Shown: positions 51,109 to 59,420, counted from the stretch's first letter. The stretch is 64,000 nucleotides of DNA from Oscillospiraceae bacterium (GCA_015066115.1 SVOZ01000002.1:6246-70245); one strand, 5' to 3'. The notes: a model not told the origin generated them from the sequence alone. Translations and numbers: made by a program.

Positions 51109-53025
51109 TTATTCCTTTACTACCGTGTACCCATCTGAAGAGCTGTTTATACTGTAGCTTTCTTTAAGGTAAGCTGACACGTCGCTGCTAAAGCTTCCAC
51201 CCGAAATTTCTATTTTTGCCTGTGAAACGCCCTCAGGGTACTGTCTTACAGCGAGAGTTCCCTCCTGAGTGCCTGTAATTTTAGTTTTATCGCCAGAAAT
51301 GAACACATTTGTTTGCCATTCGGTGTAATTTGCTTCGAGGTAAACTCCGTCGCCTGTATCCCACCAGCCGCTCTTGGAAAGCTCTGAGGGATCGCTGGGC
51401 AGAGGCGTATACTCGCCTGTTCCCGTTACGGTACAGTCGACAATATTAACGGTTCCGCCCTTGACAGCAACGCCTGTATATCCCTCAAGCGTACTTGAAG
51501 TTACAGTTAATGTACTGTCTTTTTGCGGGAAGTAAATTGCGGCGTACTTACCTTTTACGCTGCTGTTTGTAATTTGAATATCGGTTCCGTACTGAGCGCC
51601 GTTACAGATAACGCCGGCATAATTCTGTCCTATAATATTGCAATTTTCTACAACAATGGACGTTTTTTGCTCGGAAACGGCACCGTTTCCATAGATCCAG
51701 AGGCCATCCTCGGCGGCATTTATCTCACAGCCCTTAAGGTGCACCACAGAATCAATGCCGCTACTGCTCTTATTATCTGAAATCACAACTCCGTCATCGA
51801 CATTTGTAATGGTAACATTATTTAGGGTTACAGAGGACGCTATCGACGAGACGCCTATTCCCTCATTTCCGCAAATTTCTCCGTTACTGAGCATTACAGA
51901 AGCTCCATCCTTCGCCTCTACCACAGTTGCGGCGGTAGATGTGATCTTATGGCCTGCAAGGTCAATTACTGCCTGAGAAGATTCGTTAATGCTTATAGCC
52001 TCGCTTAAAGTTATATCTTCATTAAGGGTTACTAAATTAAGTCCCGGAGTGCTGAGAGCCTCATTTAAGCTCTGCTCGTCAAACACCAACACGCCGTCAC
52101 TACTGCAGTTTTGTCCTGTTATCTGAACGGTAGCCTCTCCGATTGGTTGGCTGTTACCGCCGAGCTGAGTATCTAAGACCGAGCCTGCATTAATCTCATC
52201 AAGAGTGCAAAGATATGCAAACACTCCATAGCCTGTTTCATTATTAATGTCAACAGGATAGTAACCCTCAGATGTAACGGCACTTGTGTCTATCTGGCCC
52301 TCGTAGCCGTCTGTTTGCGAGAAGGTTTTGAGAAACTCCTCAGCAGTTATCTCTCCGTCTACGGTTTCGAGCCTGCCGTTTGACTTAAAGGTTGTTTTCA
52401 TAAAGTCAAAATCATATTCAATGGGGCGCAAAAACTCTTCTATCTGCACATTTCCTGTTTCGGTTTTTCTGCCGTAAACATAGTGTCCCAAATTGTCATA
52501 GGTCCATTCCCATTTAATTACTGGCTGGGCTCCCGACTTAAACCCAAGCATAAGCTCATTGTGGGGGAAAATCGTGTATGTATAGCTGTTTCTGCCGTTA
52601 ATATACACGCGGTCTACCGTTTCTCCGTGTCTTACGGCAGAGGTGTCAACATAAAAGTAGACGCGTTTTTTCATTTGGTCAATTATCGCATCTTTTGAAA
52701 TTTTCACGCTTGCGGCGGCAAGGTCGGCGCTGTCATTAGTCATCTGAATTTCTATAACGCCGCTATCACCCGGTGATGCCGGAGTATCTACCCCTGCGAG
52801 CTCAACCTTTGCGCTGAAATTCCAGGTGTCTGCCGAGAACATAAGTCCGCCCGTGTGGACAACGTTGGTCTGCCACGCAATTGTTTGCGAAAAGATGAGC
52901 ACAGTCGTGACAATGAGCATAATCAAAAGCAAAGCCACATGAAAAATAACCTTTTTCTTAAATGGCTTTAAAGCTGCGAGCAGGTTGCCCAAGGGGTTAT
53001 TCAGTTTTGGGCTGGGTATCTTCAC
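51109..53025 (-). CDS. Cluster paralogue with a SipW-type signal, a TasA-like N-domain and a C-terminal right-handed beta-helix-like repeat region
   Basis: 638 aa with a TM helix then SQTIAWQT, and SPGDSGVIEIQMTNDSADL (compare the TasA PGD...N-G motif). The C-terminal half has irregular 20-25-aa repeats rich in G/N/V/T/I (VTLNNVTITNVDDGVVISDN; IVVENCNIIGQNYAGVICNG; IQITNSSVKGKYAAIYF), as in pectate-lyase-fold proteins. The GTG start lies 10 nt after GAGGAG. Confidence 0.65.
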   Translation of the reverse strand: MKIPSPKLNNPLGNLLAALKPFKKKVIFHVALLLIMLIVTTVLIFSQTIAWQTNVVHTGGLMFSADTWNFSAKVELAGVDTPASPGDSGVIEIQMTNDSADLAAASVKISKDAIIDQMKKRVYFYVDTSAVRHGETVDRVYINGRNSYTYTIFPHNELMLGFKSGAQPVIKWEWTYDNLGHYVYGRKTETGNVQIEEFLRPIEYDFDFMKTTFKSNGRLETVDGEITAEEFLKTFSQTDGYEGQIDTSAVTSEGYYPVDINNETGYGVFAYLCTLDEINAGSVLDTQLGGNSQPIGEATVQITGQNCSSDGVLVFDEQSLNEALSTPGLNLVTLNEDITLSEAISINESSQAVIDLAGHKITSTAATVVEAKDGASVMLSNGEICGNEGIGVSSIASSVTLNNVTITNVDDGVVISDNKSSSGIDSVVHLKGCEINAAEDGLWIYGNGAVSEQKTSIVVENCNIIGQNYAGVICNGAQYGTDIQITNSSVKGKYAAIYFPQKDSTLTVTSSTLEGYTGVAVKGGTVNIVDCTVTGTGEYTPLPSDPSELSKSGWWDTGDGVYLEANYTEWQTNVFISGDKTKITGTQEGTLAVRQYPEGVSQAKIEISGGSFSSDVSAYLKESYSINSSSDGYTVVKE

Positions 53026-53722
53026 TTGCTTTTAACTCCTCTATAAGTTCTTCTCTGATTCTCTGACACATTTGGTCATATTCCTGCGAAGAAATCACTT
53101 CTGATTTTACATCGGCTAACTGCGCTTTATCTTGCTCCTCAACCGACATAACAAGCTTTTTCATATCCTGTTTAATGGTTTTAACACTACTGCTTAAAAC
53201 TAATGCCAAAATTAAAACCGACGGAAGCACTATACAGGCAAAAAAGCCATAGCGCCCCGAAACAAAGGAAAGCAGAGAGGAAATGGCGCTATCGCCCGAA
53301 GACCATACAACCTTTCCCACCAAATTGCTTTCAAGCACATATCTTCCGTCTACCGAAAGATTGGCATCTCCCTTTGTTAAAAGCCTTCTTTGGCCATCCT
53401 CAGCTCTATCGATATCAACCACTCTGTGAGTAATTATAGTTCCAAACATATCAGCCGACTGAGAGCGGAAGCTTACTATATCCTCCATCTGCACCTCTTC
53501 TATGGGCACATCCTTAGTTAAGATAATTTCTCCAACCATAAGGTTTGGCTCCATACTCGGCGTTACAACCCGAAAAAAACTATATTTTCCGAAAGAAACA
53601 TAGCCCTTTCCGAGCACCTGAACAACAACAAACAGGCACAAGCATACCGTTATAACAAGCAGTGCCGTTGCCGCTGAGGACAATATTTTTTTAAGAAGTT
53701 TTTTATTTTGTTGCTTCTTCAT
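52997..53722 (-). CDS. sipW: SipW-type (S26B, Ser/His) signal peptidase I, copy 2, with a C-terminal TM helix and an acidic coiled-coil tail
   Basis: N-terminal TM helix, TPSMEP (catalytic Ser), ITHRV (His) and TKGDAN, then a second TM helix (FFACIVLPSVLILALVL) and a roughly 60-aa charged tail. The ATG at 53722 overlaps the upstream gene by 20 nt. Confidence 0.8.
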   Translation of the reverse strand: MKKQQNKKLLKKILSSAATALLVITVCLCLFVVVQVLGKGYVSFGKYSFFRVVTPSMEPNLMVGEIILTKDVPIEEVQMEDIVSFRSQSADMFGTIITHRVVDIDRAEDGQRRLLTKGDANLSVDGRYVLESNLVGKVVWSSGDSAISSLLSFVSGRYGFFACIVLPSVLILALVLSSSVKTIKQDMKKLVMSVEEQDKAQLADVKSEVISSQEYDQMCQRIREELIEELKASEDTQPKTE

Positions 53723-58539: not shown

Positions 58540-58583
58540 ACTTTAAACCTGCCGGAAATTATTTTAATTTAAGGCAAACCGAT

Positions 58584-59420
58584 TTAAGCCTTAGAATTAT
58601 CCGAGGCTTCATCAGCCGTTTCATCAGCGGCCTTTTCCTTTGCCATACTCTCGAGAAGCTCAGCACGAAGTTTTTCGCGGATCTCTGCTTCCATTTTTGC
58701 ACGCTCTGCCTCTTTTTGAGCCAAATCGAGCTGCTGCTTAGCAATAAGATCCTCGGTTCTGCCGCGCTCCTGCTCAAATTTAATGCGGTTTTTAACGCCC
58801 TGATATTCAAACAAGGCTCTGAAGAACTGCACCAAATTAAAGATAAAGAAAAGGAGAACGGGAAGCAAAACTACAAGGAAAAATCCTGTAGAGGTCTGCA
58901 GATAGTCAAAAACCTTTCCTAATCCTGAAATATGGAATTTGTACTTACCTACAATTTCGGATTCGTGAACGGTCAAGGGGTCAACGTTTGTGTTGTTATC
59001 ACCCTTTGTTTCAAACACAAGAAATCCGCCGCCATCGTAAATGTTTTCAATACGGTGGGTATTGAGAACTCTTTCGCCGTCAATAACCGTCCAATAGGTT
59101 ATGATATCCTTAGGACGAAGCTTTGAGGCATCCTTTACAGGCGTATCGATTGCAAGGTCTCCCGCTACAAGCTCAGGATACATTGAATCGGTCTGGATAG
59201 AGAGAAGCTGTACTCCCAAAATGTTGGGAACGCCGCTTCCGGATGTTGTTACAAAGGAAACAAAGGTGCAAACCGCGGCAATAACTATAACAATGACCAA
59301 AAGGACATTGATAATTGTATTAACGGTTTTAGACACAGATCTTCCTTTTTTTGCGGGTGCCTGGGTGCTTGTTTCGTTTTCAGAAACAGGTGTTGTTTGG
59401 GCTAATTTGTTTTCGTTCAT
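58584..59420 (-). CDS. sipW: SipW-type (S26B, Ser/His) signal peptidase I, copy 1, with a C-terminal TM helix and a coiled-coil tail
   Basis: N-terminal TM helix, TDSMYP (catalytic Ser), NTHRI (His) and TKGDNN, then a second TM helix (FFLVVLLPVLLFFIF) and a roughly 85-aa charged helical tail. RBS GGGAGG. Confidence 0.8.
   Translation of the reverse strand: MNENKLAQTTPVSENETSTQAPAKKGRSVSKTVNTIINVLLVIVIVIAAVCTFVSFVTTSGSGVPNILGVQLLSIQTDSMYPELVAGDLAIDTPVKDASKLRPKDIITYWTVIDGERVLNTHRIENIYDGGGFLVFETKGDNNTNVDPLTVHESEIVGKYKFHISGLGKVFDYLQTSTGFFLVVLLPVLLFFIFNLVQFFRALFEYQGVKNRIKFEQERGRTEDLIAKQQLDLAQKEAERAKMEAEIREKLRAELLESMAKEKAADETADEASDNSKA

Follow-up and report, generated by a model that had tools for sequence, protein, structure and literature searches.

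Why should one bacterial gene cluster encode two SipW-type signal peptidases, and what might they have to do with the pair of genes, related to McrB and McrC, that lies between them? The question is raised by a 64,000-nucleotide stretch of DNA from an Oscillospiraceae bacterium (GCA_015066115.1 SVOZ01000002.1:6246-70245; the window hereafter), the minus strand of which carries, from approximately 44181 to 63948, a single co-directional gene array as defined by open reading frame (ORF) calling. A first reading made from the DNA alone (the sequence-only reading) had drawn attention to the two peptidases, here called W1 (278 amino acids; 58584..59420, minus strand) and W2 (241 amino acids from its ATG; 52997..53722, minus strand), and to their C-terminal tails. 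The present analysis suggests that both are competent peptidases of a CoCoPALM surface-fibre cluster and that they are held in a complex with a GTPase pair that gates the release of fibre subunits, a reading to which we assign a probability of roughly 0.5. The proposal of a complex and of gating is founded on gene order, on the specificity of a tail motif and on natural gene fusions; between a complex held together by tails and termini under GTPase gating, and tails that act independently of the GTPase, we consider the odds about even.

The identification of W1 and W2 as real, catalytically competent signal peptidases of the endoplasmic reticulum (ER)/archaeal type (S26B, SipW-like) is solid, and on sequence criteria both are apparently active. 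Both pass the curated cut-off (51.85 bits) of TIGR02228, the model for archaeal/ER-type signal peptidase I, with 80.9 bits for W1 and 79.2 bits for W2. In alignment with human SEC11A, the boxes to which the sequence-only reading had pointed, TDSMYP, NTHRI and TKGDNN in W1 and TPSMEP, ITHRV and TKGDAN in W2, fall on the catalytic Ser, His and Asp, and the spacing of the resulting triads (S79/H122/D141 in W1; S56/H99/D119 in W2, numbered from its ATG) agrees with that of the mutagenised triad of Bacillus subtilis SipW, S47/H87/D106 (PMC8767453). That reading was therefore right on the enzyme class and on the boxes, and its reservation that one copy might turn out on proper alignment to miss Ser or His can be set aside, as both copies keep the two residues. 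Among homologues, Ser and His are invariant in 59 sequences of the W1 lineage (A) and 47 of the W2 lineage (B), and Asp is present in 56/59 and 42/47, respectively; a profile of the B group matches SEC11A with E = 2.8e-17. Both proteins fail the 190-bit cut-off of NF046067, the Bacillus SipW equivalog (W1, 101 bits; W2, 63.9 bits), and are best described as SipW-like proteins, not SipW orthologues. For W2, the true start is most likely the ATG at 53722, preceded at a distance of 5-6 nucleotides by the ribosome-binding site AAGGA, rather than an alternative TTG at 53764 that would give 255 amino acids.

One of the two copies might still have been a noncatalytic, chaperone-like homologue, as Streptococcus pyogenes SipA is for sortase pili. 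SipA/LepA resembles the window proteins in its signal-peptidase fold, put to use there in building pili, and SipA ranks third among the structural matches of the W1 model. However, its catalytic residues are missing, whereas W1 and W2 keep the triad, their lineages conserve Ser and His without exception and Asp nearly so, and both score over the peptidase family cut-off. We therefore reject this explanation as very improbable.

Hydropathy analysis assigns two transmembrane (TM) helices to each peptidase, bearing out the earlier prediction of a second hydrophobic helix after the catalytic domain in both copies. In W1, a cytoplasmic N-terminus (residues 1-33) is followed by TM1 (34-57), the catalytic domain (58-172), TM2 (177-205) and the tail (206-278; 58587..58805, minus strand); in W2, by ATG numbering, TM1 spans residues 15-38, TM2 157-183 and the tail 184-241 (53000..53173, minus strand). 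The predicted topology, which draws on the positive-inside distribution of residues, the SipW literature and the fusions described below, is N-terminus in, TM1, catalytic domain outside, TM2 and helical tail inside. AlphaFold2 models of the single chains, computed from alignments of 59 (W1) and 47 (W2) homologues, are consistent with this layout. The W1 model (mean predicted local distance difference test score, pLDDT, of 85.6) has a SEC11-like β core and one continuous helix from residue 177 to 274, with pLDDT >90 up to approximately residue 260, and its top Foldseek matches are SEC11C and SEC11A (7p2q and 7p2p; TM-score of 0.64 on the target). The W2 model (mean pLDDT 93.4) has a β core and two helices, 157-207 and 212-236, with a break at 208-211.

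The W1 tail begins with a conserved juxtamembrane block, YQGVKNRIKFEQERGRTEDL, and continues as an ER/K-rich helix (that is, rich in Glu, Arg and Lys) into an acidic end modelled with low confidence; in W2, an extension of the TM2 helix leads to the break and then to the second helix, which bears the sequence QRIREELIEEL. Measured after TM2, the tails comprise 73 (W1) and 58 (W2) residues, not the approximately 85 and 60 first proposed. They had also been described as cytoplasmic coiled coils. The helical part of that description is supported by the monomer models; the coiled-coil part is less certain: in W1 the hydrophobic fraction at heptad a/d positions is 0.31 versus 0.22 elsewhere, a weak signal, and the tail has ER/K-type charge pairing, with 0.21 opposite-charge i/i+4 pairs per residue (0.20 in the ER/K region of the McrC-like protein). 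The W2 tail is the more heptad-like of the two, with an a/d fraction of 0.44 versus 0.22. The further claim that B. subtilis SipW has no such tail needs correction on the account of Terra 2012 given in PMC8767453, according to which that protein has a second TM helix plus a cytoplasmic C-terminal stretch of approximately 20 residues, and these last 20 residues are required, apart from proteolysis, to activate matrix genes on surfaces. Neither a second TM helix nor a C-terminus in the cytoplasm is unusual for a SipW.

The AAA+ protein and the E/R/K-helix protein that the sequence-only reading placed between the peptidase genes are indeed encoded there and form a McrB-/McrC-like pair. The first, a membrane-anchored McrB-like GTPase of 529 amino acids (56950..58539, minus strand), has a Walker A motif GISGTGKTS, a Walker B motif LDEMNIA and an NxD-D signature, N370-N371-D372-D373; the Walker motifs and the N-N-D-D (NxD, then a second Asp) are invariant in eight homologues, a profile of which matches Escherichia coli McrB structures with E = 1.6e-6, and the protein falls just under the cut-off of Pfam AAA_5 (21.8 bits; cut-off 22). 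Its N-terminal part contains a hydrophobic helix at approximately residues 55-80 and then a juxtamembrane helix with clear heptads (0.57 versus 0.24). The second, a McrC-like protein of 630 amino acids (55043..56935, minus strand), consists of a DUF2357-type N-domain and a C-terminal ER/K-rich helical region of approximately 230 residues. Seven of 13 members of its family match PF09823 (DUF2357, the McrC N-domain; best E = 5e-12); the window copy, which is 19-54% identical to the aligned family members, gives no Pfam match on its own, and the McrC-like protein has no match to any of the nuclease families.

This combination is reminiscent of CoCoPALM, a system named by Bell et al. (eLife 2024, PMC11090510) in one paragraph that defers its analysis to later work: McrB-like GTPases of the NxD clade are fused to an FtsB-like TM and coiled-coil segment, the McrB and McrC homologues alike usually carry coiled coils, and genes of the signal-peptidase family are associated with them. 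The window has an NxD McrB-like GTPase with an N-terminal TM helix and heptad helix, a nuclease-less McrC homologue with an ER/K region, and peptidase neighbours, and by these sequence features its cluster is a CoCoPALM. Relative to that paragraph, the two-lineage architecture with fixed positions, the tails and their motif, the fusions and the tail-less variants are new. A search for later literature on CoCoPALM found none.

The arrangement is recurrent. Gene maps define a core consisting of a membrane-anchored protein, one or more subunits, a first peptidase (SipW_A; W1 in the window), the AAA+ protein, the E/R/K protein, optional further subunits and a second peptidase (SipW_B; W2). Of 301 genomes sampled evenly from the Clostridia, the class to which the window belongs, 72 contained a TIGR02228 match above cut-off; up to 20 kb was fetched around 80 places, covering nearly all such matches, and among the 10 CoCoPALM loci of this sample 7 have the order SipW_A, McrB-like, McrC-like, SipW_B, some with subunits between the last two. 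When one genome per species was scanned with a pattern, relatives of the GTPase turned up in at least 580 genomes, with carriers that include Oscillospiraceae, Lachnospiraceae, Ruminococcus, Christensenellaceae and Bacilli, and among cultured strains Ruminococcus flavefaciens MC2020 and Y1, Eubacterium ruminantium FB3002 and Lachnospiraceae bacterium 10-1. From these at least 580 species genomes, 80 further loci were taken as a GTPase-anchored sample. SipW_A lies directly upstream of the GTPase gene in 58/80 loci, and SipW_A and SipW_B occur together in 35/80. In the window, W1 is upstream of the GTPase gene with a gap of 44 nucleotides, and W2 sits 1.3 kb downstream of the McrC-like gene.

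Trees built from the peptidase cores only, with the tails removed, identify W1 (clade A) and W2 (group B) as ancient and distinct paralogues, each with a fixed place in the module, SipW_A directly before the GTPase gene and SipW_B after the McrC-like gene. In a 70-row tree, the eight A genes form one clade with a Shimodaira–Hasegawa-like approximate likelihood ratio test (SH-aLRT) support of 95 and the B genes lie across a supported split; in a 179-row tree, all 64 A genes are on one side of one branch. The nearest relatives of each window copy are genes of the same class from other bacterial families, not its partner. A recent and redundant local duplication would account for the presence of two homologous genes 5.6 kb apart on one strand, yet it is contradicted by these trees: the copies share 25% identity, they fall on opposite sides of the supported split, each nearer to genes of other families, and their arrangement has been kept across many families. 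We reject this origin as the least credible of the explanations considered. The division of labour that the sequence-only reading saw in the duplication gains from the depth of the paralogy, from the different and conserved positions and from the invariant Ser and His of both copies; against it, the Lachnospiraceae versions manage with a single, B-type peptidase.

The tails separate the two lineages further. Counting as tail all residues beyond a core profile that has TM2 as its last element, we found in the even sample tails of 33-74 residues (median 62) in class A, the eight peptidases encoded directly upstream of a homologue of the 529-amino acid protein; of 13-57 residues (median 28) in class B, the nine encoded downstream of a homologue of the 630-amino acid protein; and of 0-78 residues (median 14) in class N, the 53 from loci with neither homologue. 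Charged helical tails are strongly enriched in class A, although they are not unique to such clusters. Tails of at least 30 residues are found in all eight A proteins of the even sample and in 54 of 56 full-length A copies of the GTPase-anchored sample (median 69 residues), or 62/64 in all. The A tails moreover share an amphipathic motif, IKRRAIEEYL in Ruminococcus and Lachnospiraceae and [IL]RE[KQ]LRAELL in the lineage of the window, where it reads IREKLRAELL (W1 residues 247-256; 58653..58682, minus strand). A search with a defined 10-residue pattern found this motif in 6/8 A tails of the even sample and 36/56 of the GTPase-anchored sample (42/64 together), in 10/53 B tails of the GTPase-anchored sample, and in 0/53 tails of non-module SipWs, with three occurrences in 658,000 residues of the other ORFs of the loci. 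In an alignment of 59 A sequences, E254 is kept in 55 and position 256 is Leu or Met in 55, a conservation like that of much of the catalytic core. BLASTP pairs the QRIREELIEEL of the W2 tail with the W1 motif; tail conservation in the B group is low overall. The sequence EIERLKAQL in tails of the sister clade of A was considered as a form of the same motif and rejected, as the defined pattern is found in none of the 53 non-module tails.

Four loci (L088, L093, L094 and L100) have longer A tails, of 115-173 residues, in which the unit MEAELREKLRAEL occurs twice with an Ala/Pro/Glu-rich spacer between the copies; the motif behaves as a duplicable module.

A connection between SipW_B and the McrC-like protein is provided by natural fusions. 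Five assemblies of the genus Ruminococcus, among them those of the isolates R. flavefaciens MC2020 and Y1, encode the two proteins as a single McrC-like::SipW_B polypeptide of 973-992 amino acids (L128:7353-10307, L133:11787-14765, L138:2827-5748, L144:11709-14681 and L158:11593-14544). Its McrC-like N-domain leads, through a long ER/K stretch, into TM1 of a complete SipW_B (SMEP, HRI, GDAN), which continues with TM2 and a tail of 44-56 residues. This layout is an argument for the two proteins acting next to each other at the membrane, and it confirms the N-in topology.

Several observations weigh against the GTPase-coupled reading, and many of them would equally suit an explanation in which tails are common to Clostridial SipWs in general, serving self-association or acting as a spacer or cytoplasmic signal independently of the GTPase pair, their co-location with it being inherited. 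The sequence-only reading had named the occurrence of such tails outside these clusters as a finding that would tell against it, and this is in part what was found: 12 of the 53 class N tails are at least 30 residues long, some of them in genomes without a McrB-like gene, so that the charged helical tail is not unique to the cluster. The genome of the window (1.6 Mb, 97.75% complete) itself contains a second fibre cluster (contig C6:48147-58498 of G000) with two more SipW-type genes, the products of which, of 220 and 189 amino acids, have charged tails of approximately 40 and 24 residues; the cluster also encodes small secreted proteins with GTFAKY-type signals, a 330-amino acid protein with TM helices at both ends and one of 1913 amino acids, and no McrB-like or AAA+ gene was found in it. 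Together with the 12 class N tails, this second cluster led us to discard the idea of a tail unique to the window cluster. In the sister clade of A, from TasA-like clusters, the tails are 37-68 residues long, and a search of the respective genomes (93-100% complete) with the GTPase profile returned nothing, the control run recovering the known copies; the long helical tail is therefore probably older than the link to the GTPase pair, and the part specific to the module would be the motif. Within CoCoPALM, 20/80 loci are without SipW_A though upstream sequence is present, and Lachnospiraceae-type and some Bacilli loci have SipW_B alone, with 1-13 residues after TM2, the Lachnospiraceae-type gene directly following a short McrC-like gene; judging from such tail-less, single-peptidase loci, the tails are not needed for the GTPase module as such. 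The fusions join the N-terminus of SipW_B, not its tail, and TIGR04088, the model of the SipW-cognate signal, matches none of the N-termini of six secreted proteins of the cluster even at E up to 10. The B. subtilis SipW tail, on the cited account of Terra 2012, offers a precedent for a nonproteolytic role.

The sequence-only reading had proposed the E/R/K-helix protein or the AAA+ protein as candidate partners of the tails, a proposal that the present data support in part. What speaks for the GTPase pair and against independent tails is the confinement of the motif to the module, when it is compared with the non-module tails, and the finding that clade A tails are nearly always long. Moreover, long McrC-like proteins and tail-less peptidases were never seen together in a locus: among 72 scorable loci, those with a McrC-like protein of at least 550 amino acids have a longest SipW tail of at least 30 residues in 53 cases and only shorter tails in none, whereas for McrC-like proteins of <550 amino acids the corresponding counts are 5 and 14. 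On the GTPase tree, however, this link between length and tail reduces to only approximately four independent transitions (sign test p = 0.5), too few for a statistical test of the co-variation, and this too counts against the coupling. On balance, we regard independent tails as possible and somewhat doubtful. A different alternative is that the W1 and W2 tails pair with each other, giving a heterodimeric SipW_A/SipW_B peptidase on which, or elsewhere, the GTPase pair would act. The similar near-C-terminal motifs in the lineage of the window (EKLRAELLESM and QRIREELIEEL, the pair aligned by BLASTP), the B tails that fit the motif pattern and the joint retention of both genes in the loci noted above are in keeping with such a dimer; the poor conservation and frequent shortness of B tails, with a median of 28 residues in the even sample and 1-13 in many loci, the existence of single-peptidase systems and the weak heptads of W1 make it improbable.

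In the coupled reading that we prefer, both peptidases and the GTPase pair would form a single complex in the membrane. The long TM2-tail helix of SipW_A would present IREKLRAELL approximately 40-50 residues below the membrane; for SipW_B, the anchor would be its cytoplasmic N-terminus, lying beside the ER/K helix at the C-terminal end of the McrC-like protein, with its own tail motif perhaps contributing. GTP hydrolysis would gate or order the release and assembly of subunits. More tentatively still, the peptidases may be the membrane-spanning arms of a nucleoside triphosphate-driven complex in which a GTPase ring derived from McrBC docks on the SipW_A motif, is tethered to the N-terminus of SipW_B and, by hydrolysing GTP, sets the timing and order of the cuts that free membrane-anchored fibre subunits; as a complete picture we think this rather unlikely. 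Signal peptidases are usually regarded as enzymes that act on their own and without any supply of energy, and we know of no precedent for energy-coupled control of signal-peptide cleavage. At this locus, two dedicated peptidases are linked, by gene order, by a lineage-specific motif and in some species by fusion, to a GTPase of restriction-enzyme descent. Should the coupling prove physical, it would account for the role of the uncharacterised CoCoPALM of gut and rumen Bacillota, present in at least 580 species genomes, and would represent a new control of surface-fibre assembly in Gram-positive bacteria. Testable handles are the IREKLRAELL/IKRRAIEEYL motif, the fusions found in nature and strains in culture that carry the cluster, for example Ruminococcus flavefaciens.

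Several known systems invite comparison with the window pair. B. subtilis SipW, encoded by tapA-sipW-tasA, likewise has an ER-type Ser/His/Asp triad, two TM helices and a cytoplasmic C-terminus, is dedicated to fibre subunits cut at T-aromatic-A↓x-F (the arrow marking the cleavage site), and has a tail function apart from proteolysis. However, its tail is of approximately 20 residues as against 58-73, whereas the window operon has two paralogues that are genomically coupled to a GTPase pair missing from B. subtilis, and substrates that are much larger and match neither the TasA nor the camelysin model. SEC11A and SEC11C are the best sequence and fold matches, have the same catalytic boxes and exist in eukaryotes as two paralogous catalytic subunits; in contrast to W1 and W2, they have a single N-terminal TM helix, work with SPC12, SPC22/23 and SPC25, and are without a second TM helix, a cytoplasmic tail or an NTPase partner. 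In the sipW-bsaA-bsaB-bsaC operon of Clostridium perfringens, a Clostridial SipW serves TasA-like matrix polymers, and secretion and assembly also depend on an NTPase-driven machine, there the type IV pilus proteins; this system differs in having a single peptidase and another subunit family, and its operon contains no McrBC-like pair.

The likely substrates are encoded on both sides of the GTPase pair. Upstream of W1 lie two secreted subunits (59525..62817, minus strand), of 718 amino acids with the signal site SSTYA↓WF and of at most 365 amino acids with ATYT↓WF, both delimited from ORFs, signal motifs and homologues in related loci. A 452-amino acid secreted subunit with the site ITYA↓WT (53703..55061, minus strand) precedes W2 and has orthologues at the equivalent position in L006 and L007. 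Downstream of W2, at 45034..53025 on the minus strand, are a 638-amino acid β-helix protein (Pfam Beta_helix), a 218-amino acid protein and a giant protein of 1780 amino acids, all three with related signal motifs. The six sites, STYA↓WF, ATYT↓WF, ITYA↓WT, STFA↓WL, QTIA↓WQ and ITYG↓RY, conform to T-[YFI]-[ATG]↓[WR], with an aromatic residue or Ile at P2, Trp at P1' in 5/6 and an aromatic residue at P2' in 3/6. The TasA site, GGGTWA↓AF, is aromatic at P2 and P2', is refractory to the Ser/Lys peptidase LepB and is cut by SipW (PMC10269814). By eye, the T-Y/F-A↓W-F of the window aligns with T-W-A↓A-F of TasA, and the aromatic-rich sites are of the kind that ordinary Ser/Lys peptidases handle poorly. 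We infer that W1 and W2 both cleave these signal anchors. The other NCBIfam models searched against the substrate N-termini gave nothing.

The array opens with a membrane-anchored protein of 351 amino acids with a basic cytoplasmic N-terminus (62893..63948, minus strand), the conserved first gene of the module; its homologues precede a subunit and SipW_A in L007, L009, L011, L015, L113, L116, L118, L144 and L146. After it come the 718- and 365-amino acid subunits, W1, the GTPase, the McrC-like protein, the 452-amino acid subunit, W2, the β-helix, 218- and 1780-amino acid proteins and, last, an Lgt homologue. The McrC-like and 452-amino acid genes overlap by 19 nucleotides (55043-55061) and the latter and W2 by 20 (53703-53722), overlaps that suggest translational coupling in this stretch of the operon.

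Other architectures and variants were met in the surveyed loci. Seven loci (L054, L061, L063, L069, L070, L077 and L078) encode proteins of approximately 390-430 amino acids with a partial S26B core (profile positions approximately 41-150) at the C-terminus, an unrelated N-terminal part of approximately 280 residues and no second TM helix, a distinct architecture; four others (L062, L065, L067 and L068) encode SipW-type peptidases of 377-382 amino acids in which TM2 is followed by one more TM helix and then by a domain of approximately 160 C-terminal residues that is predicted to be extracellular. In L006 (10849-12498; G087:C99:29854-31452), the McrB-like gene has one in-frame TAG in an otherwise intact module, reflecting either a broken gene or an assembly error. 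The Lgt (prolipoprotein diacylglyceryl transferase) homologue that ends the window array (44181-44945, minus strand) matches PF01790 with E = 6.7e-12, and the 218-amino acid protein (50412-51068, minus strand) has a lipobox-like LIAC just ahead of ITYG↓RY; a dedicated lipidation step for one component of the cluster is possible. Directly 3' of the Lgt homologue is the gene for a 614-amino acid BspA-type leucine-rich-repeat surface protein with a C-terminal TM anchor (42323-44167, minus strand).

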